Origin: an uncultured Ruminococcus sp.
Lineage (GTDB): Bacteria > Bacillota > Clostridia > Oscillospirales > CAG-272
DNA length: 64,000 bases
NCBI GenBank assembly: GCA_902782445.1
Contig: CACZNC010000016.1
Location: 13,295-77,294, forward strand
Reading direction: 5' to 3'
Position 1 is the first letter of the stretch; each line of letters starts with the position of its first letter. Made by a program: the position numbers and the translations under genes. The notes beneath the pieces are model-generated. The model had not been told where the DNA came from, searched no databases, and saw nothing but the letters and a program-made list of their open reading frames with translations. This document shows positions 1,661 through 61,644 of this stretch, piece after piece.

Positions 1661-2476
1661 AAGGCTTCGCCTTTCGAAATCCTCATGACGGGCTCGCCCG
1701 TCGGCGGAGGAAGTTTATCCCTTCACGAAGGGAAAAAGGTATGAAAGGCTACGCCTTTCGGATTTAATGTCCCTACGCGGGACAGGCGGCAGGGGAACCA
1801 TCTCAGGCCGAAGGTTCCCCTGCGGGGTCCTTGGCCGTGTGGCATAACCTGACAGCTCGTCCCGGAATCCGAATCTGACTGTGCATCACACGGTCCTCGC
1901 GCGGTCTCTGCTCATGCAGTTGAAACATGGAGCGTTTCAATCGCGCATTGGGCACATAACGCGCCGGCGGGAAGCTGAAAAATAAACAGCATCCTCGCGC
2001 ACGGCCAGAGATTCAAACCCGCGTGCAGACCGAACGATACGATCGAAAATCTGCTCGGGCGGAACATGGAGCTGGGGTGCGCTTTGCGAATGTTTCACGT
2101 GAAACAATCGGCAGGAAAACCGCACTTTGTCCCCTTTCAATGCGCGACTGAATCACCGGCGGAGCCCGCAGGATTTATCCTGCGCATGTTTCGGCCGCAC
2201 GTTGGCGATCAAGCCGGGTTGGTTCCATGTTCAGGCTCTTTCACCCTGCAATCGGCAGAAGCGCGCGGGGATCGGTCCGCGGTCCGGCTTCACTTTGCGC
2301 GTCCGACGCCGACTCCTTTTCCAACCAAAACCCCGCATAAATCCAAGGCCAAACGAAATCCCGATCCGGACAATCCCGCGCTGCACGAAATTCTGCCCAA
2401 ATCCTCATCTTTTCCCTTTGAAAAGTATAACCTCCGGGATCTTTATCGAACGCGGAGGCTATTCATACTTCTCTCA
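1661..2476. repeat. R01 mosaic element: G(+) - parS - F(+)
   Basis: Fills the whole rnpA-rpmH spacer. Modules recognised by alignment to other copies in the window. Boundaries approximate. Confidence 0.8.
2091..2106. promoter_or_regulatory. parS: parS-type 16-mer, perfect TGTTTCACGTGAAACA
   Basis: Exact read; hub of R01. Confidence 0.65.
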
Positions 2477-2611
2477 TTAGTGGGTGAGTCTGGCACGACC
2501 CTTCGCGCGTCTTCTCTTCAGGACCTTTCTGCCGTCCGCGGTCGCCATTCTCTTTCTGAAGCCGTGCTCTTTGCTTCTCTGTCTTTTTTTAGGCTGGTAT
2601 GTTCTGAGCAT
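2477..2611 (-). CDS. rpmH: 50S ribosomal protein L34
   Basis: Own translation: [51 protein letters not shown] Shine-Dalgarno at 2618-2624. Too short for the ORF track. Confidence 0.95.
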
Positions 2612-2690
2612 GATGGGCACCTCCTTATCTTGAAACAGTTTCTTTCACGCCGAAGCAACGCTTGTTTGCCCGCGCAGATAGACAATCATA

Positions 2691-2720
2691 ATTATATATC
2701 ACCGAACCCTCGCTTGTCAA
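2691..2720 (-). promoter_or_regulatory. sigma-A-type promoter of rpmH
   Basis: Minus strand TTGACA (2715-2720), 18 nt, TATAAT (2691-2696). Confidence 0.6.
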
Positions 2721-2728
2721 GGGTTTTT

Positions 2729-3874
2729 TCAAAAATCCTCGGGCTCGGGAGGCGTTTTTTTGCTTCTTTTTTCTCCGAAGACGATGAATTTGCCCACGAG
2801 GAAGTTCATCACGGCGATGGAAGCGGCCACGACGACCTTCACAGCCGCCGACGGGAACTTCAAAAGATCCACGCCGAGCCACATGAGCCCGGTCTCCACC
2901 CCCAGGGAGAACAGCCGTCCGGCCGCGAAGAGAAGCCCCTCCCGGACCAGCCGCAGGCCCCTTGATCCCGACCGGAAAACGAAGGCCCGGTTCGCGAGGA
3001 ACGCGAAGGTCACGGAAATCACCCAGGCCGCCGTATTCGCCGCGAGGTAGTGGATCCGCCCCTCGAGGGAGAAATAGACCAGCCAGTTCACGAGGGTGGT
3101 GGTCCCGCCCCAGAAGATGTAGCTGACCACGTGCCAGAGCCGGTTGAGCAGTTCCACGAATTTCCGGGGAATCTTCGCCTTCGGCCTCCGGGCGAGGATC
3201 CAGGCGATGAAGCCCGCCACGACCTCCGGCAGCGCGCCGAGCATGGCTCCGAAGGTGTTCGCGATGAGATCGTCGGTCTCGAAGGTCCCGAGGCGGCAGA
3301 GCAGCTGGACCGCTTCGATGAGAAGACTGGCGGCGAGCCCGGCCCCGGTGACGAGCAGAAGGGTCTTCGCGCTCCCCCCGAAGATCCGGCCGACCCTGCG
3401 GATGGCTCCCCGGTCGGGTTCCCCCGCGGCCTTTTCCGGGTCCCGGACCTCTTTCAGCCCTTCGATGCCCCCCACGTCCAGCGCGCGGTCGCGGAAGGCC
3501 ATGCCGGATCCCTCCTCGGAGCGCGGCGCGAGCATCCCCGAGAGGAACATCCCGCCGGGCAGAAAGAGGAGCACGTTCATCCAGGCCGCCCGGAGGGTCT
3601 CGAAGTCGTGCCGCTCGGCGAATTTCCGGAGGAACGCGAAGGCCTCGGCCTTGATCCGCACCGTATCGCTCTCCGTGCGGAACAGCGTCATGGACAGCGC
3701 GAAAAGGACCCAGACCCCGAAGAGGGCGGCGTAGAACTTCCGGGTCTTCGCCGTCCGGGGATGCAGAAAAGCCTCCGCCCCTCTCAGGAGCAGAGCGATC
3801 GCGGCCGACAGAAGCGTCACGAGCCACGGCATTCTATATAGGAAGTGAAATAGAAGTCGAATCGGATTGGACAT
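2729..3874 (-). CDS. membrane protein, VanZ-like N-terminal region fused to a GtrA-like C-terminal domain
   Basis: 381-aa multi-TM ORF. The C-terminal ~130 aa (NWLVYFSLEGRIHYLAANTAAWVISVTFAFLANRAFVFRS...NFLVGKFIVF) resemble the GtrA family. The N-terminal half (...NVLLFLPGGMF...ETDDLIANTFGAMLG) is VanZ-like. Confidence 0.6.
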   Translation of the reverse strand: MSNPIRLLFHFLYRMPWLVTLLSAAIALLLRGAEAFLHPRTAKTRKFYAALFGVWVLFALSMTLFRTESDTVRIKAEAFAFLRKFAERHDFETLRAAWMNVLLFLPGGMFLSGMLAPRSEEGSGMAFRDRALDVGGIEGLKEVRDPEKAAGEPDRGAIRRVGRIFGGSAKTLLLVTGAGLAASLLIEAVQLLCRLGTFETDDLIANTFGAMLGALPEVVAGFIAWILARRPKAKIPRKFVELLNRLWHVVSYIFWGGTTTLVNWLVYFSLEGRIHYLAANTAAWVISVTFAFLANRAFVFRSGSRGLRLVREGLLFAAGRLFSLGVETGLMWLGVDLLKFPSAAVKVVVAASIAVMNFLVGKFIVFGEKRSKKTPPEPEDF

Positions 3875-3969
3875 GTTTAGTCGTTAGTAGGTAGTGGGTA
3901 GTTGTCGGCGAGGAGCGAGGAGTTGCTAGCGGCTAGTGGTTAGTAGCTAGTAGAACGAGAATTAGGAAT

Positions 3970-3985
3970 TGTTTCACGTGAAACA
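3970..3985. promoter_or_regulatory. parS: parS-type 16-mer, perfect TGTTTCACGTGAAACA
   Basis: Exact read; R02. Confidence 0.65.
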
Positions 3986-4208
3986 GGCGGGCCTTTTCCG
4001 TCAAATCGGCCGCCGCACGTCCCATTCCGCCTCCAGCTTGTCTTTCTGAGCGTATGTGAAGAATCTCCCAACTTCAAGGCCAACCCATTCTCCACGTGCG
4101 GAGATTCTTCGTCGCAGGCTCCTCAGAATGACAAAGAGAAGCGAAACGACGGGGGTCAGCCGCCCTGCATGAAGAATCGTTTCAGGAAAAACAGAACGAA
4201 ATCCCGAT

Positions 4209-4224
4209 TGTTTCACGTGAAACA
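4209..4224. promoter_or_regulatory. parS: parS-type 16-mer, perfect TGTTTCACGTGAAACA
   Basis: Exact read; R02. Confidence 0.65.
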
Positions 4225-4399
4225 AGGAATCATTCCTCATTCCTAATTTCACGAAAGCGTTCTACCAGCCACTAACCACTCCTCACTCCTAACTCTAATT
4301 ATACACCATTTCCTCCGATCCGGCAATACGGCGTTTGGCTGAACTTTCGGGAGATATATGAACGAAATGTCAATTGTTCATGAATAGTTTGACATTCGC

Positions 4400-4429
4400 T
4401 TGCGGAATACGGTCGTATTGTGGTAGAAT
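4400..4429 (+). promoter_or_regulatory. candidate promoter of the wzz/BY-kinase/LCP genes
   Basis: TTGCGG, 18 nt, TGgTAGAAT (extended -10). Confidence 0.4.
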
Positions 4430-6149: not shown

Positions 6150-6382
6150 GGACGCGCGTTCGGAAAGCCGAAACTGCTCTTTCACCCTCGCGCACATATT
6201 CAGGTTCAGACAGACATGCAGCCCGAATTGAGCGATCAAAAATCCATCCGGGCGAAACCTGAAATTTTGCGGGCGAATGTTCCACGTGAAACAATTCTTA
6301 ATTCATCATTCTGAATTCTGAATTTCATTCCTAATTCCTCATTCCTCATTCACTCCTCACTCCTAACTCCTAACTCATCACT
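6150..6382. repeat. R03 mosaic element: partial G(+) - parS - arm
   Basis: Only the parS-proximal half of G (…CCTCGCGCACAT..CAG.TTCAGACAGACATGCAGCCCGAA…) is present. Confidence 0.7.
6278..6293. promoter_or_regulatory. parS: parS-type 16-mer TGTTCCACGTGAAACA (canonical B. subtilis-type site)
   Basis: Exact read; R03. Confidence 0.65.
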
Positions 6383-6401
6383 CCCCAAAGGATTCCTTTT
6401 C

Positions 6402-7886: not shown

Positions 7887-8072
7887 AGTCCGGAGCGAGG
7901 AAGGAGTTGCCAGCGGAAAGTGGCTGGTGGTCAGCAGGACAGTCAGCCGGGGATGATTGTGCGGCGAGAGGATTTTGTTTCACGTGAAACAATTCTTAAT
8001 TCATCATTCTGAATTCTGAATTTCATTCCTCATTCCTCATTTTGTCCACTCCTAACTCCTCACTCCTAACTC
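7887..8072. repeat. R04 minimal element: arm - parS - arm
   Basis: Between the LCP stop and the sigma-gene promoter. Confidence 0.75.
7976..7991. promoter_or_regulatory. parS: parS-type 16-mer, perfect TGTTTCACGTGAAACA
   Basis: Exact read; R04. Confidence 0.65.
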
Positions 8073-9015: not shown

Positions 9016-9572
9016 CATCCCTTCACGAAGGGAAATAAGGAATGAAACGCTCCGCGTTTCGGATTTAATGTCCCTACGCCGCGTCGACGCAGTCACGCAG
9101 ACGGGCAGCCGGGAGGGACCATCTCAGGCCGACGAGTGTTGCTTCGCAAACTCTGCCCCTCCCGAGGGTCCAATTTGCGGAGCAAATAGTTGGCCGTATG
9201 GCATAACCTTACCGCTCGTCCCGGAATCAAAATTCAATCTTGCATCCCACGTCCCCGCGCGGTCTCTGTTCGTGCAGCCGAAACATGCGCAGACAATGTC
9301 TGACGCACCGACGCAGTCGTGCTGGCCTCCGGCGGAGATTCAGGCGCGCATTGGGCACAGGACGCGCATCGCTGAATCGAAACCTGTTTCCGCATCCTCG
9401 CGCACATGCTCAGATTCAGACAGACATGCAGCCCGAACCGCGCGAACGAAAACCGTCCGGGCGAAACATGAAGTTTTGTCTGCGATTGTTCCACGTGAAA
9501 CAATTCTGAATTCATCATTCTGAATTCTGAATTTCATTCCTCATTCTACTAACCACTAGCCGCTAACTACTA
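9016..9572. repeat. R05 mosaic element: G(+) - parS - arm
   Basis: Separates the ECF sigma gene from the candidate anti-sigma ORF. Confidence 0.8.
9487..9502. promoter_or_regulatory. parS: parS-type 16-mer TGTTCCACGTGAAACA
   Basis: Exact read; R05. Confidence 0.65.
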
Positions 9573-11071: not shown

Positions 11072-11087
11072 TGTTTCACGTGAAACA
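11072..11087. promoter_or_regulatory. parS: parS-type 16-mer, perfect TGTTTCACGTGAAACA
   Basis: Exact read; R06. Confidence 0.65.
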
Positions 11088-11092
11088 AAACG

Positions 11093-11140
11093 CCGTCAGA
11101 GAAGAACTTTCGGGTTCGACCCTGACGGTTTTTGATTTTG
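11093..11140 (+). terminator. terminator-like hairpin inside repeat module I
   Basis: CCGTCAG...CTGACGG followed by TTTTTGATTTT. Lies between two parS sites after the plus-strand ORF ending at 10990. Confidence 0.55.
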
Positions 11141-11182
11141 TGAGACGATGCTAAAATCTGCGTGTCCTTCACGAAAACGGAA

Positions 11183-11198
11183 TGTTTCACGTGAAACA
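11183..11198. promoter_or_regulatory. parS: parS-type 16-mer, perfect TGTTTCACGTGAAACA
   Basis: Exact read; R06. Confidence 0.65.
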
Positions 11199-13550: not shown

Positions 13551-14179
13551 AACGAGTTAGGAGTGGCTTGGTTAGTAGCTAGCGGCTAGTGGCTAGTAGC
13601 TAGTAGACCGCCCTCGTGAAATTAGGAATGAGGAATGAAATTCAGAATTCAGAATTATGAATTAAGAATTGTTTCACGTGAAACATTTGCCCGCCGAAAC
13701 TCCATGTTTCGCCCGGACGGTTTTCGATCGCGCGGTTCGGGCTGCATGTCGATCTGAATCTGAGTATGTGCGCGAGGACAAAGAAACAGTTTTTGCTTCC
13801 CGTCCGCGCGTCCTGTGCCCAATGCGCGCCTGAATCTCCGCCGGAGGCCAGCACGACTGCGTCGGTGCGTCAGACTTTGTCTGCGCACCACTCCAACTGC
13901 ACGAACAAAGACCGCGCGAGGACCGTGGGATGCAAGATCGAATTTCGAATACGGAACGAGCGGTAAGTTTATGCCATACGGCCAAGGACCCGCAGGGGGG
14001 ACTTCGGCCTGAGATGTTCCCCCTGCCGCCCGTCTGCGTGACTGCGTCGACGCGGCGTAGGGACATAAATCCGAAACGCGTAGCGTTTCATTCCTTATTT
14101 ACCTTCGATGAAGGTATGCTTTTCTCCGCCGACGGTCAAGAATGACCGTCGTTGCTGATTTCGTAAAGCGGAGCTTTGC
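13551..14179. repeat. R07 mosaic element: arm - parS - G(-)
   Basis: Between the tig stop and the clpP upstream region. Confidence 0.8.
13670..13685. promoter_or_regulatory. parS: parS-type 16-mer, perfect TGTTTCACGTGAAACA
   Basis: Exact read; R07. Confidence 0.65.
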
Positions 14180-17576: not shown

Positions 17577-17592
17577 TGTTTCACGTGAAACA
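17577..17592. promoter_or_regulatory. parS: parS-type 16-mer, perfect TGTTTCACGTGAAACA
   Basis: Exact read; R08. Confidence 0.65.
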
Positions 17593-17687: not shown

Positions 17688-17703
17688 TGTTTCACGTGAA
17701 ACA
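17688..17703. promoter_or_regulatory. parS: parS-type 16-mer, perfect TGTTTCACGTGAAACA
   Basis: Exact read; R08. Confidence 0.65.
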
Positions 17704-20391: not shown

Positions 20392-20407
20392 TGTTTCACG
20401 TGAAACA
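20392..20407. promoter_or_regulatory. parS: parS-type 16-mer, perfect TGTTTCACGTGAAACA
   Basis: Exact read; R09. Confidence 0.65.
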
Positions 20408-20645
20408 ATCGTGATTTCGGACGGCTGACCTCCGTCGTTTCGCTTCTCTTTGTCATTCTGAGGAGCCTGCGACGAAGAATCTCCGCACATGGAGGATGGG
20501 TTGGCCTTAACGTTGGGAGATTCTTCGCTGACAGCACAACTGCGTTGGTGCGCACGACCGCGTTGGTGCGCATGACTGTGTCGGTGCGTCAGAATGACAA
20601 CGTGAGGGCGGAATGGGACGTGCGTCGGCCGAAATTCCGGAAAAA

Positions 20646-20661
20646 TGTTTCACGTGAAACA
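20646..20661. promoter_or_regulatory. parS: parS-type 16-mer, perfect TGTTTCACGTGAAACA
   Basis: Exact read; R09. Confidence 0.65.
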
Positions 20662-22291: not shown

Positions 22292-22307
22292 TGTTTCACG
22301 TGAAACA
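22292..22307. promoter_or_regulatory. parS: parS-type 16-mer, perfect TGTTTCACGTGAAACA
   Basis: Exact read; R10. Confidence 0.65.
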
Positions 22308-22471: not shown

Positions 22472-22487
22472 TGTTTCACATGAAACA
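22472..22487. promoter_or_regulatory. parS: parS-like variant TGTTTCACATGAAACA (1 mismatch)
   Basis: Exact read; R10. Confidence 0.45.
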
Positions 22488-23695: not shown

Positions 23696-23711
23696 TGTTT
23701 CACGTGGAACA
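23696..23711. promoter_or_regulatory. parS: parS-type 16-mer TGTTTCACGTGGAACA (complement of the canonical site)
   Basis: Exact read; R11. Confidence 0.65.
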
Positions 23712-23944: not shown

Positions 23945-23960
23945 AGTTTCACGTGAAACA
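23945..23960. promoter_or_regulatory. parS: parS-like variant AGTTTCACGTGAAACA (1 mismatch)
   Basis: Exact read; R11. Confidence 0.5.
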
Positions 23961-24799: not shown

Positions 24800-24815
24800 T
24801 GTTTCACGTGAAACA
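24800..24815. promoter_or_regulatory. parS: parS-type 16-mer, perfect TGTTTCACGTGAAACA
   Basis: Exact read; R12. Confidence 0.65.
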
Positions 24816-25023: not shown

Positions 25024-25039
25024 TGTTTCACTTGAAACA
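25024..25039. promoter_or_regulatory. parS: parS-like variant TGTTTCACTTGAAACA (1 mismatch)
   Basis: Exact read; R12. Confidence 0.45.
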
Positions 25040-25959: not shown

Positions 25960-26376
25960 GAGGGATGATCTGCTTCTTTCATGGGCGGAAATCTATGTCG
26001 GAAGGGAGTCCGCGGCGGGGCGGGGGGATGTGCGGGACGGGATGGGGAACTGTGCGGGACGGGCGTTTTTTGGATGGGAGCGCTTCGCCCGCTTCGCATG
26101 GATTCGGGAGACGCGCCGTCGTTCAGCCGGGAAATGGGGCGATCTTCGCGGGTCGGATCAGATTCAATCCGGACGAGCCGGAACATGGAGCCAACCCGGC
26201 TTGATCGCCGACGTGCGGCCGAACCCATGCGCGGGACAGGCCCGCGGCCTCGCGGCGGAGATTCAGGCGCGCATTGGAAGGGGGACAATGTCAGGGCTCT
26301 TCTCCCGATTGTTTCACGTGAAACAAGGAAAAACGGTTCTCCTGGCCACTAGCCGCTTCCAACTACCAACTCCTCA
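25960..26376. repeat. R13 mosaic element: F(-) - parS - arm
   Basis: Between mreC and mreB. The arm supplies the mreB TGA stop. Confidence 0.8.
26310..26325. promoter_or_regulatory. parS: parS-type 16-mer, perfect TGTTTCACGTGAAACA
   Basis: Exact read; R13. Confidence 0.65.
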
Positions 26377-27405: not shown

Positions 27406-28060
27406 ACGTATGGATCCCGCTTCACGGGAAATAGGAATGAAACGCTGCGCGTTTCAGATTTTATGTCCCTGCGCCGCGTCGACGCAGTCACGCAGACGGG
27501 CAGCCGGGAGGGAACATCTCATGGCCGACGAGTGTTGCTTCGCAAACTCTGCCCCTCCCGAGGGTCCAATTTGCGGAGCAAATAGTTGGCCGTATGGCAT
27601 AAACTTACCGCTCGTCCCGTCAGTTGAAATCTGACAGTGCGTCCCACGGTCCTCGCGCGGTCTGTGTTCGTGCAGCCGAAACATGCGCAGACAATGTCTG
27701 ACGCACCGACGCAGTCGTGCTGGCCTTACGGCGGAGATTCAGGCGCGCATTACACGGGACGCGCGGACGGGAAGTAGAAAATAAAACTTCATTTTCGCGC
27801 ACGGTTTGAGATTCAGACAGACATGCAGACAGAGCCGCGCGATCGAAAAGCATTCGGGTGAAACATGGGGTTTGGGCAAAGCGGCCGGCTGTTTTGATCG
27901 AAAAAGTCAGCCGTGAAGGAGGAAAACCGTGATTTTCCCCTTTCACCGATCACTTTTTCAGGGATCAGCGGGAATTTCGTCCGTTTCACGTGAAACAATT
28001 CTGAATTCATCATTCTGAATTCTGAATTCACTCGTCCCATTCCTTATTCCTCATTCCTCT
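27406..28060. repeat. R14 mosaic element: G(+) - parS variant - arm
   Basis: Between mreB and maf. The arm encodes the maf C-terminus. Confidence 0.8.
27982..27997. promoter_or_regulatory. parS: parS-like variant CGTTTCACGTGAAACA (1 mismatch)
   Basis: Exact read; R14. Confidence 0.5.
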
Positions 28061-35328: not shown

Positions 35329-35344
35329 TGTTTCACGTGGAACA
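35329..35344. promoter_or_regulatory. parS: parS-type 16-mer TGTTTCACGTGGAACA
   Basis: Exact read; R17. Confidence 0.65.
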
Positions 35345-36807: not shown

Positions 36808-36823
36808 TGTTTCACGTGAAACA
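36808..36823. promoter_or_regulatory. parS: parS-type 16-mer, perfect TGTTTCACGTGAAACA
   Basis: Exact read; R19. Confidence 0.65.
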
Positions 36824-37175: not shown

Positions 37176-37191
37176 TGTTTCACGTGAAACA
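37176..37191. promoter_or_regulatory. parS: parS-type 16-mer, perfect TGTTTCACGTGAAACA
   Basis: Exact read; R19. Confidence 0.65.
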
Positions 37192-40084: not shown

Positions 40085-40681
40085 GATCTTAGTTTAATCT
40101 CCTTCTGCTTAACGAGACGAAAGCCTCCGCCTTTCAAAACCAGCCATGACGGGCATTCCGGTGACTGCGTCGACCGATCCGTCGGCGGAGGAGGGTTTGT
40201 CCATCCCTTCACGAAGGGAAATAAGGTATGAAACGCTACGCGTTTCGGATTTAATGTCCCTGCGCGGGACGGGCGCCGGGAGGGACCATCTCAGGCCGAA
40301 GGCCCCTCCCGAGGGTCCCTTGGCCGTATGGCATAACTGTACAGCTCGTTCCGGAATCGAAATTCGACTGTATATCCCACGGTCCTCGCGCGGTCTTTGT
40401 TCGTACAGCTTAACCCGTGCACGGAACAAGTTCCGTGGGCTTCGCCGGCGTTTCAGGCGCGCATTGGGCACAGGGACGCGCGATTTTGAAGCTGAAACTG
40501 TTTCTCAGTCCTCGCGCACGGTTTTAGATTCAGAGGGACGTGCAGCCCGAACCGCGCGAACAAAAATCTGTTTGGGTGGAACATGGAGTTTTGGCGGCGA
40601 ATGTTTCACGTGAAACATCAGTCAATTCCTAACTCCTAACTCGTCCTCTGCTAGCCGCTAGCCGCTTCCAACTAGCAACTA
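40085..40681. repeat. R20 mosaic element: G(+) - parS - arm
   Basis: Between the gyrA start and the PfkB kinase stop. Confidence 0.8.
40602..40617. promoter_or_regulatory. parS: parS-type 16-mer, perfect TGTTTCACGTGAAACA
   Basis: Exact read; R20. Confidence 0.65.
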
Positions 40682-41566: not shown

Positions 41567-42362
41567 AAGAACCTCCGTGTAGAGTTGGAAATACGAAACC
41601 GGGATTTCGTTTCGGCCTGGGATTTTCGTTTTTCGGATGGGAACGCTTCGCTGGGATTCGGGTGACGCGCGACCTTAAAGCCGAAACAGAGAGCAATCCC
41701 CGCGCGCTTGAACCGATTGCGGATTTGACAAGTCGAACATGGCGTCAACCCCGCGCGGTCTGTGTTCGGACAGCTGAAACATGCGCAGGATAAATCCTGC
41801 GGCCTTGCGGCGGTGATTCTGTCGCGCATATAAAGGGGACAATGTACAGTCTTTCTTGCCGATTGTTTCACGTGAAACATTAGAACGCCCAAACTCCATG
41901 TTTAGGCTAAACAGATTTTCGATCGCGCCGTTCTGCCTGCACGTCTGTCTGAATCTGAGCATATGCGCGAGGAAGAAGAAACTATTTCAGCTTCCCGTCC
42001 GCGCGTCCTGTGCCCAATGCGCGCCTGAATCTCCGCCGGAGGCCGCAGACTTGTCTGCGCATGTTTCAACTGCACGAACAGAGACCGCGCGAGGACGTGG
42101 GATGCAGAATCGAATTTCGATTCCGGGACGAGCTGTAAGTTTATGCCATACGGCCAAGGGACCCTCGGGAGGGGCCTTCGGCCTGAGATGGTCCCTCCCG
42201 GCGCCCGTCCCGCGCAGGGACATAAATTCTGAAAGGCGTAGCCTTTCATTCCTTAAATACCTTCCGTGAAGGTATGAACATCCTCCTCCGCCGACGGACA
42301 GGAATGTCCGTCGTTGCTGATTCAGAAAGGCGGAGTCTTTCGTCCCGGGTTTGGGTGGCGGG
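41567..42362. repeat. R21 mosaic element: F(-) - parS - G(-)
   Basis: One hub with one F arm and one G arm. Between the kinase start and the gyrB stop. Confidence 0.8.
41864..41879. promoter_or_regulatory. parS: parS-type 16-mer, perfect TGTTTCACGTGAAACA
   Basis: Exact read; R21. Confidence 0.65.
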
Positions 42363-44683: not shown

Positions 44684-44699
44684 TGTTTCACGTAAAACA
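44684..44699. promoter_or_regulatory. parS: parS-like variant TGTTTCACGTAAAACA (1 mismatch)
   Basis: Exact read; R22. Confidence 0.45.
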
Positions 44700-44931: not shown

Positions 44932-44947
44932 AGTTTCACGTGAAACA
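44932..44947. promoter_or_regulatory. parS: parS-like variant AGTTTCACGTGAAACA (1 mismatch)
   Basis: Exact read; R22. Confidence 0.5.
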
Positions 44948-45289: not shown

Positions 45290-45486
45290 GTAAGCGGCTA
45301 GTAGGCCAGTGGCTAGCAGTCAGTAGAACGGGGAAGTGAATCGTGATGATGAGGGCGGAATCGCTGTTTCACGTGAAACAATCCGCTTCCGAATCGAGCC
45401 CGGAGAACGGCGTTCCTCACTCCTCACTCCTAACTCCTCACTCGTCTCTACTAACCTCTAGCCTCTTCCAACTAGCAACTAAATCA
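45290..45486. repeat. R23 minimal element: arm - parS - arm
   Basis: Between the remB-like gene and dnaN. Confidence 0.75.
45365..45380. promoter_or_regulatory. parS: parS-type 16-mer, perfect TGTTTCACGTGAAACA
   Basis: Exact read; R23. Confidence 0.65.
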
Positions 45487-46764
45487 GTTATTCATTCTAA
45501 TGGGCATGACGAAGAACATAAACATGTCCTCGCGGTATTCTCTTTCCGACTGGGGGACGGGGGATTCAGGGCTATTGCCCAGGCGCTCGCCATAGACTTC
45601 GGGGTCGGGCTTCGCGTCGAGGAAGGTGGTCCCCTCCGCCGGTTCGATGACCGCGCCCATGCCGGGGGTGTTCAGCCGGATCCGCAGGCGGTCGCAGTCC
45701 GAGGGGCAGGCTTTCAGGGCTTCGAGGAGGTAGCGGCAGTTGAAGCCGATGGAGAGGTCCGCGCCGTCGATGGCAGCCGGGATCCGCTCGAACACCGACC
45801 CGCCGGCGGACACGGAGGACATGGAGACTTCCTTCCCCTTGAAATCCAGCTTCACGTAGGACCGCCCGTTCCCGCCGAGCTTGTCTTCGGTGACGATGGA
45901 CGCGCGTTCCACCGCCCCGAGCAGTTCCGCCCTTGAGACGAAGGCCTGAGTCATGTAGGTGGAGGGGAGGAGCCGTTCGTAGGCCATGTATTCCGCGTCG
46001 AGCATCCGGGTGAAGTAGTAGGTCCCGTCCACCCGGAAGACGATGTTCTTGCGGCCGATGATGAGTTCCGCGTCGTCCTCGGTGTCCCGGAGCATCTTCT
46101 GCAGTTCCCCGAGGAATCTGCCCGGGATGATCATTTCGCTCCGGTCGCCGTTTTCGGAGGAGGTGACTTCGCACTTCGCGGCGGAAAGGCGGTTCCCGTC
46201 GCATCCCACTGCCGTGAGCCAGCCCTCCCGGATGCGGAAGAGCCCGCCGTTGAAGGACACCCGCTGGTCGTTCTGGGCCACGGAGAAGACGGTCTCGGAG
46301 ATCAGGGCCTTCAGTTTGCGCTGGGGGACGAGGCATCTGCTCTCACCGACGAAGCGGGGCATGGAGGGGAAATCCTCGCCGGGAGCAGCGGTGATGGAGA
46401 ATTCCGAGAAGCCGCCCCGGACGGAGACCTTGCCCCGGTCGCCGATCTCGAGGGTGATCTCGCCGGAGGGGAGGGAGCGGACGATCTGCAGGATCTTGAC
46501 GGTGTTGATGACGTAGAGGCCCTCCTCCTCGATTTTGCAGGGGACGAGGGTGCGGAGCCCTTTTTCGAGGTCGAAGGCGGAGATGCGGCAGAGATCCCCG
46601 TCGATGCCTTCGCCGTCGTGTTCGCCGAGCTCGCCGAAGCGGGGATTCGGGGGACACTCGAAGAGGATGCCGTCGACGGACGCCATCGTGTTTTTGGTCT
46701 GCGCGACGGACACCGCGGGCGTGATCGCCGCCAGCAGGTCTTCGCGGTTGAAGGTGACTTTCAT
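45484..46764 (-). CDS. dnaN: DNA polymerase III beta sliding clamp
   Basis: 426 aa. MKVTFNREDLLAAITPAVSVAQTKNTM... ends ...FFVMPIRMNN. Downstream of dnaA-oriC. Confidence 0.93.
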   Translation of the reverse strand: MKVTFNREDLLAAITPAVSVAQTKNTMASVDGILFECPPNPRFGELGEHDGEGIDGDLCRISAFDLEKGLRTLVPCKIEEEGLYVINTVKILQIVRSLPSGEITLEIGDRGKVSVRGGFSEFSITAAPGEDFPSMPRFVGESRCLVPQRKLKALISETVFSVAQNDQRVSFNGGLFRIREGWLTAVGCDGNRLSAAKCEVTSSENGDRSEMIIPGRFLGELQKMLRDTEDDAELIIGRKNIVFRVDGTYYFTRMLDAEYMAYERLLPSTYMTQAFVSRAELLGAVERASIVTEDKLGGNGRSYVKLDFKGKEVSMSSVSAGGSVFERIPAAIDGADLSIGFNCRYLLEALKACPSDCDRLRIRLNTPGMGAVIEPAEGTTFLDAKPDPEVYGERLGNSPESPVPQSEREYREDMFMFFVMPIRMNN

Positions 46765-47151: not shown

Positions 47152-47167
47152 TGTTTCACGTGAAACA
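47152..47167. promoter_or_regulatory. parS: parS-type 16-mer, perfect TGTTTCACGTGAAACA
   Basis: Exact read; R24, dnaN side of oriC. Confidence 0.65.
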
Positions 47168-47381: not shown

Positions 47382-47397
47382 TGTTTCACGTGAAACA
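47382..47397. promoter_or_regulatory. parS: parS-type 16-mer, perfect TGTTTCACGTGAAACA
   Basis: Exact read; R24. Confidence 0.65.
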
Positions 47398-48237: not shown

Positions 48238-48246
48238 TTTTCCACA
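48238..48246 (+). promoter_or_regulatory. DnaA box (TTTTCCACA)
   Basis: 8/9 to TTATCCACA. Confidence 0.65.
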
Positions 48247-48353
48247 GGATTCGGGGCGGTTTTTCCGGGGGCGGGGAGGAAATCCGGGTTTTCGGCGTGC
48301 CGAGGGAGCCGTTTTCCGTTGGTTTTGCGTCAAGCGGGGGTGGAAAGCTCTGG

Positions 48354-48362
48354 TTTTCCACA
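48354..48362 (+). promoter_or_regulatory. DnaA box (TTTTCCACA)
   Basis: 8/9 match. Forms an inverted pair with the box at 48379, 16 bp away. Confidence 0.65.
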
Positions 48363-48378
48363 GAAGTTTTCCCCTGAT

Positions 48379-48387
48379 TGTGGAAAA
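48379..48387 (-). promoter_or_regulatory. DnaA box (TGTGGAAAA)
   Basis: Complement of TTTTCCACA, 8/9. Confidence 0.65.
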
Positions 48388-48442
48388 GTCCGAGGTGTTT
48401 TTTGCCCCGTTTTTCCGTCCGGATTTCGGCTTTGGGCACCGG

Positions 48443-48451
48443 TGTGGAAAA
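48443..48451 (-). promoter_or_regulatory. DnaA box (TGTGGAAAA)
   Basis: Complement of TTTTCCACA, 8/9. Confidence 0.65.
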
Positions 48452-48836: not shown

Positions 48837-48852
48837 TGTTTCACGTGAAACA
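48837..48852. promoter_or_regulatory. parS: parS-type 16-mer, perfect TGTTTCACGTGAAACA
   Basis: Exact read; R25, dnaA side of oriC. Confidence 0.65.
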
Positions 48853-49112: not shown

Positions 49113-49128
49113 TGTTTCACGTGAAACA
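49113..49128. promoter_or_regulatory. parS: parS-type 16-mer, perfect TGTTTCACGTGAAACA
   Basis: Exact read; R25. A decayed remnant CGTTTCACAGAAACA starts at 49081. Confidence 0.65.
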
Positions 49129-49431: not shown

Positions 49432-51309
49432 TTATCCTCTCCGTATCTCCTTGGATATCTGCGCGACCCTCGCCTCAAACACGGCGTCTGACGCGAGCTC
49501 CGCCTCCACCTTCGCGATGTTCGAATGCACCGTGGAGTGGTCCCGGTAGAAAAATACGCCGATCTGGGGATAGGACGCGCCGGTGACGGTCCGCACCAGG
49601 TACATCGACACGTTCCGGGCGGTCTGGATGTTCTTCTTTCTGTCCTTGCCGAGAATGTCGTCCGGGGTGACGGAGTAGTGGGCCGCCACCTTCGCGATGA
49701 TCCGCGCCACCGTGTCCGTCAGCGGCTCCGTGGATCGGATGTACTCCGGGACGGTCTTCAAAACCATCTCCATCGTGACCGGGTCCCCGGAGATCATGTG
49801 CTTCATGGCGAGCTTCTTCACGACGCCCTCCAGCTGGCGAATGTTCTCCTGCAGGTTCGTGGCGAGGAAGTCGATGACGTCCGTCGGGACTTCCACGTGG
49901 TTCTGGCTGATCTTCTCTTTGAGGATCGCCATGCGGAGCTCGTAGTCCGGCGGCTGGATGTCGACAAGCAGTCCGGCTTCGAAGCGGCTGCGGATCCGGC
50001 TTTCGAGGGAGGTGAGCTCCTTCGGGGGCCTGTCCGAGGTGATGACGATCTGCTTCCTGTCCTCGTAGAGGGCGTCGAAGGTGTGGAAGAATTCGGTCTG
50101 GGTGCTCTCCTTCCCGGCGATGAACTGGATATCGTCGATGAGGAGCATGTCGGCCTTGCGGTATTTGTCGCGGAAGGCCTGGTTCCGGTCCCGCCGGATC
50201 GCCTCGATCATCTGGTTCATGAACTCCTCGCCCTTGACGTAGACGATCTTTAACCCGGGATCCCGCTTCATGGCCCGGTTGGCGATGGCGTACATCAGGT
50301 GGGTCTTGCCGAGGCCCGAGGGACCCCAGATAAAGAGGGGATTGATGGACATGCCCACGTTGTCGGCGACGCTGAGGGCCGCCGCGTGAGCCATCTGATT
50401 GGACCGGCCCACGATGAAGGTCTCGAAGGTGTAGTCGCGGCCGGGACCGTTGAGCAGCCGGTTCTGGAGATCGGGGGAGGAGGGGGGCACGGTCCGGGAG
50501 GGGGTGGGGATGCCGCCGCTGAACCCGGCGTTCTCCCGGCTTGCCGTCTGCCGTCCGTCGTCGGAGGGCGCGGGATTTTCTCTCCCTCCGTCAACTCCGG
50601 CGGGATTTTTGTAAACGGGTCTCGAGGCGGATCCGGGGACGGAGGGCCTGCTTGCGCCGGAAGAGGTCGGGGCTCCCGTGTGCCCCACGATGCGGTAGAC
50701 CGAGGGGGCGCCGATGTTCACGTAATCCGGCTCCCGTTCGGCGTCCTCGTCGGGCCAGCCCGTTCCGTTCCCCTCCGCGGTGGACCGTATGGCGTCGATA
50801 TCCCCCACGCCGGTCTGCCAGCCCTCGTCCCCGTCGTCCTCGCCGTCGTCGTCACGCTCGTCATACTGACGGGAAAGCGGGTCGGGGAGCTGTCCGGGAA
50901 TCCGCAGGCTGTCGCGGTTCCGGGGGAGGGTGAAGGGGACGGAGGGATCCGGGTCCGCCGCGGGATCCGCGTTCTGTCCGCCGGTACGGGGTTTTGGAAG
51001 CACGGCCCCGTCGGCGGTGAGGATGGTGCGGAGGGCGGGGTCGACCGTGACGGCGATCTCCGGCCGGTAGCCGAGGACTTCTTCGAGGGAGTCCGCGATG
51101 AGGTCGGAATAGCGCTCCGATACGATGCCGCACTTCATTTTGGTCTCGCAGGCGAACACGGCCCGTTCCGCGTCCAAAAGCTCCAGCCGCAGCCTGCCGA
51201 ACCAGAGCTGATAGGACTGCTTCGTCCCGGTATACCGTTCCCGCATGACCTCGTCGAGGGCCGCCCGGATCTCGTCCAGCCCGTCGGAGGCCTGTTTTTC
51301 TCTATTCAT
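49432..51309 (-). CDS. dnaA: chromosomal replication initiator protein DnaA (very long domain II)
   Basis: 625 aa. Domain I, a ~195-aa P/G/D-rich linker, AAA+ NPLFIWGPSGLGKTHLMYAI, and domain IV ...RKKNIQTARNVSMYLVR...SYPQIGVFFYRDHSTVH. Confidence 0.97.
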   Translation of the reverse strand: MNREKQASDGLDEIRAALDEVMRERYTGTKQSYQLWFGRLRLELLDAERAVFACETKMKCGIVSERYSDLIADSLEEVLGYRPEIAVTVDPALRTILTADGAVLPKPRTGGQNADPAADPDPSVPFTLPRNRDSLRIPGQLPDPLSRQYDERDDDGEDDGDEGWQTGVGDIDAIRSTAEGNGTGWPDEDAEREPDYVNIGAPSVYRIVGHTGAPTSSGASRPSVPGSASRPVYKNPAGVDGGRENPAPSDDGRQTASRENAGFSGGIPTPSRTVPPSSPDLQNRLLNGPGRDYTFETFIVGRSNQMAHAAALSVADNVGMSINPLFIWGPSGLGKTHLMYAIANRAMKRDPGLKIVYVKGEEFMNQMIEAIRRDRNQAFRDKYRKADMLLIDDIQFIAGKESTQTEFFHTFDALYEDRKQIVITSDRPPKELTSLESRIRSRFEAGLLVDIQPPDYELRMAILKEKISQNHVEVPTDVIDFLATNLQENIRQLEGVVKKLAMKHMISGDPVTMEMVLKTVPEYIRSTEPLTDTVARIIAKVAAHYSVTPDDILGKDRKKNIQTARNVSMYLVRTVTGASYPQIGVFFYRDHSTVHSNIAKVEAELASDAVFEARVAQISKEIRRG

Positions 51310-51469: not shown

Positions 51470-51904
51470 GTGGCTAGTGGTTAGTAGAACCGTCAGCATG
51501 AAATGAGGAATGAGGAGTGAAATTCAGAATTCAGAATTAAGAATTGTTTCACGTGAAACATCATGTCTTCCCCCGCACATTGTCCCCTTTCCATGCGCGC
51601 CTGAATCTCTGCCGGAGGCCGCAGGATTTATCCTGCGCATGTTTCGGCTGCACTTCGGCGATCAAGCCGGGTTGGCTCCATGTTCCGGCTCGTCAAATCC
51701 GCAATCGGTATAAGCGCGCGAAGAGCGTGAAGCGGTTTTTGATACAGAACCGCGCGTCCTATCCATTCCAGCGAAGCGCTCCCATATAAAAAACTATAAT
51801 CCCGCACCCCACCCCATCCCGCCGCGGACAACAAAAAAATCCCTCCCCACAGAAGATCCCCGTGAGGAGGAACGGTTATCGGCGATCAGCAGTCCCGGAA
51901 AGAT
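51470..51904. repeat. R26 mosaic element: arm - parS - F(+)
   Basis: Starts about 90 bp upstream of the dnaA promoter and ends at the SBP stop. Confidence 0.8.
51545..51560. promoter_or_regulatory. parS: parS-type 16-mer, perfect TGTTTCACGTGAAACA
   Basis: Exact read; R26. Confidence 0.65.
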
Positions 51905-53832: not shown

Positions 53833-53848
53833 TGTTTCACGTGAAACA
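53833..53848. promoter_or_regulatory. parS: parS-type 16-mer, perfect TGTTTCACGTGAAACA
   Basis: Exact read; R27. Confidence 0.65.
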
Positions 53849-54132: not shown

Positions 54133-54148
54133 TGTTTCACGTGAAACA
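54133..54148. promoter_or_regulatory. parS: parS-type 16-mer, perfect TGTTTCACGTGAAACA
   Basis: Exact read; R27. Confidence 0.65.
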
Positions 54149-54193: not shown

Positions 54194-54209
54194 AGTTTCA
54201 CGTGAAACA
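54194..54209. promoter_or_regulatory. parS: parS-like variant AGTTTCACGTGAAACA (1 mismatch)
   Basis: Exact read; R27. Confidence 0.5.
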
Positions 54210-57440: not shown

Positions 57441-57456
57441 TGTTTCACGTGAAACA
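57441..57456. promoter_or_regulatory. parS: parS-type 16-mer, perfect TGTTTCACGTGAAACA
   Basis: Exact read; R28. Confidence 0.65.
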
Positions 57457-57661: not shown

Positions 57662-57677
57662 TGTTTCACGTGAAACA
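57662..57677. promoter_or_regulatory. parS: parS-type 16-mer, perfect TGTTTCACGTGAAACA
   Basis: Exact read; R28. Confidence 0.65.
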
Positions 57678-58861: not shown

Positions 58862-58879
58862 GACGGAATTCCTCCGATT

Positions 58880-59384
58880 TTAGTTGTTAGTTGGAAGTGG
58901 CTAGTGGCTAGTAGAGCGAAGAGGGAAGAGGGAATTCAGAATTCAGAATGAAGAATTGTTTCACGTGAAACATCCGCCGCCAAAACTCTATGTTTCGCCC
59001 GGACAGATTTTCGATCCCGCGGTTCAGCCTGCACGCGGATCTGAATCTGAATATGTGCGCGAGGACGGAGAAACAGTTTCAGCTTTCCATCCGCGCGTCC
59101 CATGTAATGCGCGCCTGAATCTCCGCCGTAAGGCCGCAGGACTTGTCCTGCGCATGTTTCGGCTGCACGAGCAGAGACCGCGCGAGGACGTGGGATGCAC
59201 AGTCGATTTTCGATTCAGGGACGAGCTGTAAGTTTATGCCATACGGCCAAGGGACCCGCACAGGGGGCCTTCGGCCTGAGATGGTCCCCCGTGCCGCCGT
59301 CCCGCGCAGGGACATAAATATACCGGTCGACGCAGTCACCGGGACCGTCGTTGCTGATTTCGAAAGGCGGAGTCTTTCGTTCGC
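58880..59384. repeat. R29 mosaic element: arm - parS - G(-)
   Basis: Between the hydrolase start and the oxidoreductase stop. Confidence 0.8.
58957..58972. promoter_or_regulatory. parS: parS-type 16-mer, perfect TGTTTCACGTGAAACA
   Basis: Exact read; R29. Confidence 0.65.
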
Positions 59385-60469: not shown

Positions 60470-60485
60470 TGTTTCACGTGAAACG
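60470..60485. promoter_or_regulatory. parS: parS-like variant TGTTTCACGTGAAACG (1 mismatch), solo site
   Basis: Exact read. Lies 30 bp upstream of the oxidoreductase ATG, with no arms. Confidence 0.5.
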
Positions 60486-60705: not shown

Positions 60706-61029
60706 ATGCCGTACTGCGAACGGTGCATGACCGTGTTCTCCGGAGACGTCTGCCCGGAGTGCGGAAAGAAGAACCGGATCCGGGAACTGAAACCGGACGA
60801 TCCCTGCCTGCTGGGGGAATTCGACAGCATCTGGAGCGAAGTCCTCACCGACGTGCTGACCCAGAACGGGATCCCGTTCATGAAGAAGGGCAGGCTCGGC
60901 GCCGGACTGGCCTGGACCGTCGGCCCTGTGCTCGAAAAGGAAAAGATCTACGTCCCCGCGTCCGCCCTGGGAGAAGCGAAGGATCTGGCGGAAGGGATTT
61001 TTGAGAAAGCGGAAGAGAGTGAGGAATGA
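60706..61029 (+). CDS. small zinc-ribbon protein, function unknown
   Basis: ATG at 60706 preceded by an AAAGGAGG Shine-Dalgarno. MPYCERCMTVFSGDVCPECGKK... (CxxC-x10-CxxC). Has its own promoter. The stop and the ESEE tail lie in a repeat arm. Confidence 0.6.
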   Translation: MPYCERCMTVFSGDVCPECGKKNRIRELKPDDPCLLGEFDSIWSEVLTDVLTQNGIPFMKKGRLGAGLAWTVGPVLEKEKIYVPASALGEAKDLAEGIFEKAEESEE

Positions 61030-61135
61030 GGAATTGGGAGGCCGTCGGCCGGGAGGTTCCGTACAGCGGCGGGCAGATTGTTTCACGTGAAACAAACGCA
61101 AATTCTGCATTCTTAATTCTTAATTCTGAATTCCC
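61013..61135. repeat. R30 minimal element: arm - parS - arm
   Basis: Overlaps the stop of the zinc-ribbon ORF. Confidence 0.75.
61079..61094. promoter_or_regulatory. parS: parS-type 16-mer, perfect TGTTTCACGTGAAACA
   Basis: Exact read; R30. Confidence 0.65.
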
Positions 61136-61179
61136 TCGCGTTCTCCCTTCTCCCTTGACTTCCCGGCCGAAATTCCCTC

Positions 61180-61209
61180 TTGACATCCCGGCCCTGTGTG
61201 TGGTATAAT
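61180..61209 (+). promoter_or_regulatory. sigma-A-type promoter of tRNA-CAT
   Basis: TTGACA (61180-61185), 18 nt, TGgTATAAT (-10 at 61204-61209). The tRNA 5' end is 10 nt downstream. Confidence 0.65.
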
Positions 61210-61218
61210 AGCTCACGC

Positions 61219-61295
61219 GGGCCATTAGCTCAGTTGGTCAGAGCTCCCGGCTCATAACCGGTTGGTCCTGGGTTCAAGTCCCCGATGGCCCACCA
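61219..61295 (+). tRNA. tRNA with CAT anticodon, most like tRNA-Ile2 (lysidine type); elongator Met not excluded
   Basis: GGGCCATTAGCTCAGTTGGTCAGAGCTCCCGGCTCATAACCGGTTGGTCCTGGGTTCAAGTCCCCGATGGCCCACCA. Cloverleaf with an encoded CCA. It resembles the Bacillus Ile-CAU tRNA. Flanked by a strong promoter and a terminator. Confidence 0.9.
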
Positions 61296-61296
61296 G

Positions 61297-61332
61297 AAAA
61301 ACAGACTCCCGAAAGAGTCTGTTTTTGATTTT
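61297..61332 (+). terminator. intrinsic terminator after tRNA-CAT
   Basis: AAAAACAGACTC, CCGAAA loop, GAGTCTGTTTTT, then GATTTT. Confidence 0.8.
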
Positions 61333-61392
61333 CCGCAGGTTTTGCGGGCGGGCCGGGTTTGAATTCAGAATTCAGAATGATGAATTAAGAAT

Positions 61393-61408
61393 TGTTTCAC
61401 GTGAAACA
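61393..61408. promoter_or_regulatory. parS: parS-type 16-mer, perfect TGTTTCACGTGAAACA
   Basis: Exact read; R31. Confidence 0.65.
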
Positions 61409-61628
61409 TTTTTCCGAAATTCCAGCCGCCGCACGTCCCGTTTCGCTTCCAGCTTGTCATTCTGACGCACCGACACAGTCGTGCGCACCAACGCAGTTGT
61501 GCTGTCAGCGAAGAATCTCCCAACATCAAGGCCAACCCATCCTCCGCGTGCGGAGATTCTTCGTCGCAGGCTCCTCAGAATGACAAAGAGAAGCGAAACG
61601 ATGGGGGTCAGCCGTCCGAAATCACGAT

Positions 61629-61644
61629 TGTTTCACGTGAAACA
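61629..61644. promoter_or_regulatory. parS: parS-type 16-mer, perfect TGTTTCACGTGAAACA
   Basis: Exact read; R31. Confidence 0.65.

Follow-up and report, generated by a model that had tools for sequence, protein, structure and literature searches.

We analysed a 64-kb stretch of DNA from an uncultured Ruminococcus sp. (the window) in which a 16-bp palindrome, TGTTTCACGTGAAACA, recurs throughout the intergenic regions on both sides of dnaA and dnaN. The palindromes are probably genuine parS sites that modular repeats have multiplied across an origin-centred domain of ~125 kb or more, at which ParB is predicted to load. The window alone holds 49 copies with at most one mismatch, whereas described chromosomes carry 1 to ~20-23 parS, usually within 5-40 kb (PMC7333895; bioRxiv 10.1101/2020.12.04.411900). 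The excess over known counts that a preliminary description of the window had pointed to therefore stands, with 49 sites in 64 kb compared to a per-chromosome maximum of ~20-23 (PMC7333895).

The window was searched for TGTTTCACGTGAAACA with ≤1 mismatch and 100 dinucleotide-preserving shuffles served as the control. The 49 matches span positions 2091..61644, whereas the shuffled sequences contained on average 0.00 matches. 36 copies are perfect, four are the T/C variant (two of TGTTCCACGTGAAACA and two of TGTTTCACGTGGAACA) and nine carry another single mismatch; in 10 of the 13 one-mismatch copies the change falls on the degenerate positions 1/16 and 5/12. The copies, their positions and the 36/4/9 split are the same as those first listed. 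On a gene map of the window based on the GC content of third codon positions (GC3), 0 of the 49 sites fall inside high-GC3, real-looking genes, so that the earlier statement that all of them lie outside coding sequences holds and every site is intergenic. Intergenic DNA accounts for 34% of the window and 28 of its 29 intergenic regions of at least 150 bp contain at least one site; in the dense zone the spacing is approximately one site per 1.3 kb. The same sequence was recovered in independent assemblies, with 100% identity in two ENA samples and 92-97% identity in JGI contigs and NCBI contigs of metagenome-assembled genomes (MAGs), and thus the window is not an assembly artefact.

The perfect 16-mer is the consensus parS used across the ParB literature, and as a 16-bp palindrome it matches tGTTNCACGTGAAACa; the window has 36 perfect and 13 one-mismatch copies of it. 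More distant Oscillospirales carry two to three perfect copies of the same 16-mer, a few kb from dnaA or near parAB. In one related Oscillospirales contig (L124) the gene order is canonical (dnaA ... yidC-jag-mnmE-mnmG-rsmG-parB-like-parA) and the 16-mer lies at the junction of parA and the parB-like gene. As related Oscillospirales carry the exact 16-mer near parAB or dnaA, we regard it as the ordinary parS of the clade, which bears out the identity originally proposed for it. Using clade-specific ParA and ParB queries we found that the lineage of the window encodes a Soj-like ParA and a Spo0J-like ParB of 300 aa with the Pfam domains ParB_N and HTH_ParB. parA-parB is present on contig L168, which comes from the same sample as the exact DnaA of the window, and the same ParB cluster is found together with the right-most gene of the window (663 aa) on the 97% identical strain contig L169. 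The proteins are tied to the window by this synteny across contigs, which places parB ~7 kb past the right edge and ~20 kb from dnaA. A canonical parA-parB operon, as had been expected, is therefore present in the lineage; its expected place to the left of yidC proved wrong, and the 10 kb there contain yidC, an 885-aa protein, mnmE, holA and others. A perfect parS is located directly upstream of parA (L055 2112, which equals L168 8894) between promoter-like elements, TTGACA...TACAAT upstream and TTGACT...TATAAT downstream, and this arrangement suggests ParB autoregulation and an ancestral site.

In Caulobacter numbering the ParB shows Q162, G170, K171, S172, R173, N178, G201 and R204, and its CTP-binding motif GERRFRAAKLAG is intact (GERRxR type; GERRFRA). 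Given the roles described for the DNA-contact and specificity residues of the Caulobacter protein (PMC7383237), the signature reads as the parS-type 'RxxG'. A second ParB-family gene stands beside rsmG at the position of Noc, ~11 kb past the right edge (L168 5989-6942 and L169 5558-6517, both on the minus strand). For this paralogue Pfam detects HTH_ParB only, the residues are of the Noc type that reads Noc-binding sites (NBS), namely Q173, K179, R184 and R201, and the arginine/CTP patch is degenerate (GEIRVEA compared to GERRxRA). The paralogue in L124 has the exact QKKR and an intact GERRLRA. Because of its Noc-type residues and degenerate arginine patch the paralogue of the window lineage is not the predicted reader of the 16-mer; the predicted reader is ParB with R173 and G201. 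The amplified sequence is likewise not of the NBS type: the NBS core ATTTCCCGGGAAAT, with A at core position 1 and C at core position 6, is not what we observed, 186 of 186 sites keep G at position 2 of the 16-mer, and position 7 of the half-site takes only 4 of 49 mismatches.

We then read outward from every 16-mer and found that each site adjoins one of a few recurring module ends. The earlier picture of independent sites in unique spacers had to be given up, as the flanks are recurring modules and the sites are their joints. Only three solo sites stand in unique sequence: one in the parA promoter and two in the window, both TGTTTCACGTGAAACG, at 29822..29837 and 60470..60485 (the latter identical in sister strain L012), which have unique sequence on both sides and are candidates for ancestral parS. 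The simplest unit is arm-site-arm, as at the perfect site 35728..35743, and larger arrays have the form arm-site-module-site-module-site-arm. Arms are built from heptamer units (GAATTCA, GGAATGA, GGAGTGA, GGCTAGT) and contain little C on the strand leading 5'->3' into the site. One example with CTAGTGG, GGAATGA and GAATTCA units occupies 13560..13669, with its C-poor strand running into parS, and an arm of the opposite sense (ATTCTTA ATTCATC ATTCTGA ... CTCCTAA) extends over 6294..6401 from parS to the start of a LytR-family gene. No strand is assigned to these arms, to modules B, C and D or to the parS sites. Module B (~240 bp; for example 20408..20645) contains a long internal hairpin and has parS at both ends; its core of 24-32 nt occurs 12 times in the window. 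Module C (~300 bp; for example 51561..51860) begins with a variable spacer of 20-23 nt beside parS, followed by a conserved block starting with TGTCCCCTTTCCATGCGCGCCTGAATC. Copies of module D (~470 bp; for example 13686..14165) are 72-81% identical. Module T (11088..11182, plus strand) is an intrinsic-terminator-like hairpin (CCGTCAGAG...CCCTGACGG, then a T run) with two bounding parS and lies downstream of the plus-strand gene 9614-10990. A search of the modules with the Rfam 15 covariance models, at the gathering threshold and at E ≤ 1, matched no family. The RNAalifold energies of 26 copies of module D hardly differ between the strands and no consensus structure stands out, and for this reason we make no claim that the modules are RNAs.

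Comparisons between strains illustrate how the arrays change. Where L169 reads SITE-arm, L168 reads SITE-B-SITE-arm, and hence the gain or loss of a module involved one additional 16-mer and no more. In L168 the radical-SAM gene is parted from lplA by a 466-bp D-parS-arm block (544-1010); the 96% identical sister L169 lacks the block, and there the two genes overlap by 4 bp (719-724). At its end, ahead of the next start codon, the block carries AAAGGAG, which resembles a ribosome binding site. Arms differ between strains by whole heptamer units (L168 5891 onward compared to L169 5421 onward), which suggests slippage-like hypervariability. Between strains with long alignments 92-99% identical to the window the intergenic flanks are 14% different, indels included. 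A relative whose DnaA is 74% identical (L117) has GAATTCA arms joined to unrelated short sequences and no 16-mer, and in close relatives (DnaA 62-84% identical) the stretch from 10 kb before to 10 kb after dnaA contains 0-1 sites. It follows that the arms predate their parS tip and that the amplification is lineage-specific.

Within the window the sites flank dnaA, oriC and dnaN, though copies also occur elsewhere. dnaA (625 aa; Pfam Bac_DnaA, 1.4e-68) is encoded on the minus strand at 49432..51309 and dnaN (Pfam) on the minus strand at 45484..46764. GC skew over the window was too noisy for placing the origin, which was located by DnaA boxes. Of the six DnaA-box-like 9-mers that the window contains, four lie together at 48238..48451 (no strand) in the 2.7-kb dnaA-dnaN spacer, and this cluster is the probable oriC core. 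The putative core itself is free of parS sites and of modules. Perfect sites surround it at 45365..45380 just upstream of dnaN (arm-like / arm-like), at 47152..47167 on the left flank of the oriC spacer (C / B-left), at 47382..47397 (B-right / C), at 48837..48852 on the right flank of the core (another recurrent module end / B-left), at 49113..49128 (B-right variant / C) and at 51545..51560 upstream of dnaA (arm / C).

Further loci of the lineage were retrieved with a module B probe without the 16-mer, which yielded 105 metagenome stretches. The hairpin of the probe also matches unrelated organisms and those loci were removed from the non-origin set. L038 and L102 were first counted as non-origin and then moved to the origin-linked loci, as they are mutually adjacent and lie beside mnmG; their contig, from the sample of the window, measures 51,482 bp, which is the size of the longest ParB-bearing contig. 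The origin-linked set consists of the window, a 9 kb left extension, L168, L175 and part of L176 (112.8 kb), and the distal set of L173, L177, L179 and L181 (75.2 kb), taken from contigs of 92, 58, 54 and 19 kb. The origin-linked set contains 81 sites, or 0.72 per kb, compared to only 0.09-0.28 per kb in the distal set. Perfect copies account for 81% of the origin-linked sites and 50% of the distal ones, and the perfect fraction differs between origin-linked and all other loci with p = 0.003. We found no copies with two to three mismatches in the origin-linked set and four (with two mismatches) in the distal set. Long intergenic regions are occupied in 63 of 71 cases near the origin compared to 11 of 29, and C/D modules have a parS joint in 28 of 32 cases compared to 9 of 17, while the intergenic fraction is similar in both sets. 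The three longest of the distal contigs (L173, L177 and L179) belong to the same strain as L169, whose origin region has 0.73 sites per kb. Lineage loci without placement, another 223 kb in all, fall in between, with 0.41 sites per kb and 64% perfect copies, and in total ~190 sites were observed in the ~390 kb of lineage DNA sampled. High- and low-occupancy loci can be assigned to one species, because their proteins co-occur with the lineage ParB in the same NCBI MAGs. The dense zone reaches from at least ~13 kb to the left of the window to ~58 kb to the right of it and covers ~125-136 kb. The possibility raised at the outset, an equal density everywhere on the chromosome, is thus not what we observed, as the origin-linked density is 3-8 times that of the other long contigs. 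Of the clustering at the origin claimed in the preliminary description the enrichment was upheld, but the sites are not confined to the origin zone and also occur outside it at 0.1-0.4 per kb. An exact 28-mer, composed of the 16-mer and the start of module B, had no match among the GTDB representative genomes, a collection that does not include the species.

The 16-mers are far more conserved than their surroundings. Within modules B, C and D the copies share 77-85% identity, whereas the 16-mers are 1.7% off the consensus. When orthologous intergenic DNA is compared between sister strains, 8 of 434 site positions are different (1.8%), compared to 810 of 5633 (14.4%) in the flanks of 100 nt on each side (p = 1.5e-18), and several of the changes in the sites toggle between TGTTTC and TGTTCC. 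Lineage-wide we counted 137 copies with no mismatch, 49 with one, eight with two and three with three. Among 186 sites, 33 of the 49 mismatches affect positions 1 and 5 of the half-site, written 't' and 'N' in tGTTNCACGTGAAACa, and 0 of 49 affect positions 2-4, among them the guanine that R173 contacts (P = 5e-10). The low divergence between sister strains and the confinement of mismatches to positions that parS tolerates speak for constraint; strong selection was one of the causes, beside recent spread and gene conversion, that were put forward when the near-identity of the copies was first noted. The hairpin formed by the 16-mer is weak (-3.9 kcal/mol as RNA, -2.8 as DNA), and a T run follows within 14 nt at only 6 of the 49 sites, with an AT-rich stem. 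Because the mismatch spectrum is parS-like, the hairpin weak and T runs rare, we read the constraint as protein recognition: it looks like half-site recognition by a dimeric protein with the known tolerance of ParB rather than the upkeep of a structure. The 16-mer has neither the GC-rich stem and T run of an intrinsic terminator, features that module T supplies, nor the make-up of the repetitive extragenic palindromes (REP) and bacterial interspersed mosaic elements (BIME), a 20-40 nt imperfect palindrome with a stable hairpin and an associated RAYT transposase; no RAYT was seen in ~400 kb, in a search that was not exhaustive. Half-parS is not enriched. As far as sequence can tell, the sites have every property of parS and lack those of NBS, REP and terminators.

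A structural role for the palindrome as a hairpin or cruciform unrelated to ParB, whether REP/BIME-like, mRNA-stabilising or terminating, would account for a perfect, intergenic, multi-copy palindrome, and where arms stand on both sides the palindrome does grow to at least 24 bp (GAAT-16mer-ATTC) with -9.7 kcal/mol as RNA. We nevertheless consider such a role highly improbable. The 16-mer alone folds only weakly, few sites are followed by a T run, terminators come from the separate module T, Rfam offers no family, single mismatches are uncompensated and 0 of the 8 two-mismatch variants are symmetric. The identity as terminator or REP hairpin was rejected on the same grounds, the weak hairpin, the few T runs and the lack of compensated or symmetric variants. 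It is also very unlikely that the sites are relics, that is parS amplified by repeats and for the most part unused by ParB (for instance through occlusion or low ParB) in a neutral and recent pattern. Such a number of functional parS is unprecedented and one site is usually sufficient (PMC7022226), but sister-strain substitution is 8-fold lower in the sites than in the flanks, the sites are still perfect in module copies that are ~20% diverged, and origin-linked DNA has no copies with two to three mismatches. The main rival is that the 16-mer serves mainly as a recombination site, terminal repeat or duplicated target of a non-autonomous mobile family, with its identity as parS exploited or incidental, turnover (molecular drive) conserving it and local hopping from the ancestral parS enriching it at the origin. 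This view explains the anatomy of the joints well: sites lie exactly at module junctions, modules come and go with exactly one site, n modules have n+1 sites as in Xer-dif modules or cassette arrays, a whole D-site-arm block stands between genes that overlap in a sister strain, and orthologous flanks are often replaced wholesale while the site is kept (82 of 258 flank columns differ at site 3970). Furthermore, sites occur outside the origin zone. Set against miniature inverted-repeat transposable elements (MITEs), which have terminal inverted repeats, a target site duplication and an autonomous partner encoding a transposase, the two palindromic 16-mers that flank a module could be read as terminal inverted repeat, target site duplication or recombination site. 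As the sole explanation the rival nonetheless appears unlikely to us. The sequence is exactly the parS of the clade and a parS-type ParB is present, the mismatch spectrum is the known degeneracy of parS, three solo sites (29822, 60470 and the parA promoter) stand in unique sequence, and the higher degeneracy of distal copies compared to origin-linked ones is not predicted by a purely element-driven process. No transposase is evident either, since ~400 kb of lineage DNA contains no multi-copy protein gene that would be a candidate, although no transposase profile search was run. Both views may be true together.

We therefore prefer the reading of the 16-mers as real, amplified parS. In this lineage of rumen Oscillospirales-like Clostridia, parS would have multiplied from the few copies that are usual to roughly one every 1.3 kb over an origin-centred domain and would have become the invariant joint at which heptamer arms, the three modules B, C and D and the terminator hairpin meet. 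Each added module would bring exactly one parS, giving n+1 sites for n modules, and because of this arrays would accumulate in nearly every intergenic gap. Constraint that matches ParB recognition, strongest in origin-linked DNA, would keep the copies near-perfect. The gradient could result from local spread from an ancestral parS near parAB, for which the three solo sites are candidates, or from counter-selection of parS outside a permissive origin zone, and the two causes are not exclusive. Counter-selection of parS away from the origin has been seen experimentally in other bacteria (cited in PMC7333895 and bioRxiv 10.1101/2020.12.04.411900). The canonical ParB would then load as a sliding clamp at 80 or more entry points, and around oriC this would produce a partition complex and SMC-loading domain of great breadth and without gaps. 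What we put forward on how the modules recombine, on what selects for the enrichment and on the effects for the cell is inferred.

Several points weigh against this reading. A single parS usually suffices (PMC7022226) and selection on many redundant sites is hard to explain; molecular drive at the joint could mimic it. Outside the origin zone there are further sites (0.1-0.4 per kb), which in model bacteria one would expect to interfere with segregation or SMC traffic (bioRxiv 10.1101/2020.12.04.411900). Binding of the 16-mers by ParB is deduced from the sequence of site and protein. The non-origin contigs come without chromosomal placement and were ascertained via module B, which is itself site-flanked; as these loci were found via a site-flanked repeat, their density is if anything overestimated. 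L175 and L176 are linked to the origin by the shared maximum size of 51,482 bp and by synteny, not by read-through sequence. No recombinase or transposase behind the gains of module plus site was identified in the ~400 kb. A further reading goes beyond the preferred one and strikes us as rather doubtful: ParB-parS would have turned from a point centromere into a domain-wide DNA organiser with weaker coverage elsewhere, and the parS palindrome, possibly bound by ParB, would be the recombination joint at which modules are shuffled. If true, centromere amplification and repeat expansion would drive each other, and the degenerate Noc-position paralogue would have lost its role, with ParB coating taking over nucleoid occlusion, transcriptional insulation or distributed SMC loading.

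The clusters described so far differ from this arrangement in number, placement and context. Streptomyces coelicolor and Listeria innocua have 20-23 parS near oriC and B. subtilis ~10 (PMC7333895), and they share with the window lineage the 16-bp consensus, the enrichment at the origin and a Spo0J/ParB with a nearby Soj/ParA. The window lineage differs from all three with 49 sites in 64 kb and, over the 113 kb of origin-linked DNA, 81; the sites fill almost all intergenic regions and most are perfect copies; furthermore, the sites of those organisms lie in unique or coding sequence, whereas here they are the joints of repeats and also occur outside the origin zone. ParB of P. aeruginosa binds hundreds of 7-bp half-parS and acts as a nucleoid-associated protein (PMC7022226, PMC5961200). 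Both genomes have hundreds of motifs that ParB could recognise, suggesting a role in global chromosome topology, but those of P. aeruginosa are half-sites that arise largely by chance and show narrow peaks, whereas the window lineage has full 16-bp palindromes that are predicted to nucleate clamps and shows no enrichment of half-sites. The Noc/NBS system of Bacilli, a CTPase that is a paralogue of ParB with ~70 dispersed 16-bp sites (PMC7383237), is similar in its many dispersed palindromes, and the window lineage also has a paralogue at the Noc position with residues Q/K/R/R; however, the amplified 16-mer has the parS-specific G at position 2 and A at position 7. The Xer-dif (pdif) modules of Acinetobacter plasmids and the cassettes of integrons are likewise bounded by a short site, follow the n/n+1 rule and are shuffled between loci. 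Their site is an 11-6-11 Xer site or attC, whereas here it is a 16-bp parS that joins non-coding, chromosomal modules in nearly every intergenic region. As an architecture, and by analogy, the arrays come closest in their working to Xer-dif modules or cassette arrays, though they are neither. They also resemble REP/BIME, enterobacterial repetitive intergenic consensus (ERIC), Correia and MITE-like repeats, high-copy non-coding intergenic mosaics that break short-read assemblies, but the conserved unit here is the joint and not the body, and the hairpin is weak. We know of no such repeat that carries a centromere site, and our literature search found no report of full parS on dispersed repeats or MITEs.

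Models of ParB-CTP clamp loading, of partition-complex size and of SMC loop extrusion were built on 1 to ~20 parS clustered within a few tens of kb. Added or dispersed strong parS perturb chromosome folding in experiments. A natural genome with at least 80 near-perfect sites in ~113 kb and many elsewhere, under measurable constraint, is therefore an extreme test case for the size limit of the partition complex, the titration of ParB, the avoidance of SMC collisions and the question of why parS cluster near origins. The amplification of a host cis-element as the joint of modular repeats is a previously undescribed route. In practical terms, the repeats presumably fragment short-read assemblies of this rumen lineage; its MAGs are probably incomplete, and genome collections probably contain too few of them.

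The remaining sites of the window were assigned by motif search and flank reading, and all those listed below without a variant sequence are perfect. Perfect copies join D / C at 2091..2106, arm / B-right at 3970..3985 and 61393..61408, B-left / arm at 4209..4224 and 61629..61644 (the latter arm of E type), and other sequence / arm at 7976..7991 and 61079..61094, the second of these upstream of tRNA-Met. Module T is entered from an arm at 11072..11087 and 17577..17592 and followed by C at 11183..11198 and 17688..17703. We observed arm / D joints at 13670..13685 and 58957..58972, D / arm at 40602..40617, C / D at 41864..41879, C / B-left at 20392..20407, 36808..36823 and 53833..53848, and B-right / C at 20646..20661, 37176..37191 and 57662..57677. 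Arm / B-left joints are found at 22292..22307, 24800..24815 and 57441..57456, with an arm-like counterpart at 33207..33222, and a variant of B-right meets an arm at 33439..33454. E-type joints are C / arm at 26310..26325 and arm / arm at 32304..32319. B-right / 45-nt GC hairpin is located at 54133..54148, and the hairpin is followed by the variant AGTTTCACGTGAAACA at 54194..54209 (hairpin / arm). The same variant joins B-right / arm at 23945..23960 and at 44932..44947, where sister strain L021 is perfect. TGTTCCACGTGAAACA joins D / arm at 6278..6293 and 9487..9502, and TGTTTCACGTGGAACA joins arm / B-left at 23696..23711 and unique sequence / arm (E type) at 35329..35344. The other variants are TGTTTCACATGAAACA at 22472..22487 and TGTTTCACTTGAAACA at 25024..25039 (both B-right / arm-like, the second perfect in sister strain L040), CGTTTCACGTGAAACA at 27982..27997 (unique / arm, perfect in the sister strain) and TGTTTCACGTAAAACA at 44684..44699 (arm (E) / B-left).

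Some features of the modules are noted here in addition. The spacer of module C between parS and the block TGTCCCCTTTCCATGCGCG has a fixed length of 20-23 nt and a sequence that is unrelated in each copy (51561-51580, 47398-47417, 2107-2127); that of module D is likewise variable, with 10-16 nt. The core hairpin of module B (TGTCATTCTGAGGAGCCTGCGACGAAGAATC ... GATTCTTCGC ... TCAGAATGACA) occurs as an identical 24-mer without parS in unrelated contigs of 31-51% GC (L023, L026, L043, L080) and looks like a cosmopolitan small element, for which no name was found in the literature. At L173 3216-3430 we observed a decayed arm-site-arm unit with TGTTTCACGTAGAACA (two mismatches), a case of site erosion away from the origin. 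A comparison of the arm-plus-site pattern with viral contigs returned only one contig that was already part of the data, one low-GC chance match and one 11-kb contig with a single terminal site. L170, a predicted viral contig in IMG/VR (16.7 kb, 61.6% GC), carries one arm with parS at an end, while 11 kb of it are free of further sites; possibly it is a prophage of the window lineage that the repeats have not colonised.

The gene order around the origin is rearranged compared to the Firmicutes norm. gyrB and gyrA are also within the window (Pfam), and rnpA-yidD-yidC stand at its left edge, ~45 kb away. The series rpmH-rnpA-yidD-yidC-(885 aa)-mnmE shares the strand of dnaA and lies ~47 kb from it on the dnaN side. 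parAB and rsmG are divergent, mnmG is found separately, tens of kb further on, and genes on both flanks of dnaA are encoded on the minus strand. The 885-aa protein, which has no Pfam hit (L003 11524-14181, left of the window), takes the slot after yidC that normally belongs to jag. DnaA is unusually long, with ~290 residues ahead of the AAA+ domain, and its nearest relatives (62-84% identity) come from rumen and gut MAGs labelled Oscillospiraceae, Ruminococcus or Clostridia. Across the window Rfam 15 detected two tRNAs only, at the gathering threshold and at E ≤ 1. Public assemblies of the species are mostly shattered: most contigs with its genes are shorter than 5 kb, and 14 of the 24 index blocks that hold its yidD contain no contig above 2 kb. 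Short-read contigs presumably break at the modular repeats. The tetranucleotide CTAG is nearly absent from the coding DNA of the window, with one occurrence compared to ~150 expected from base composition, and occurs 0-3 times per locus in relatives (zero in 6 of 8). In the window 48 of the 49 CTAG are intergenic, apparently for the most part in the GGCTAGT-type heptamers of the arms (for example 13560-13669, 22230-22290 and 3900-3969), and the 7-nt period of these heptamers generates stop codons in all frames on both strands.

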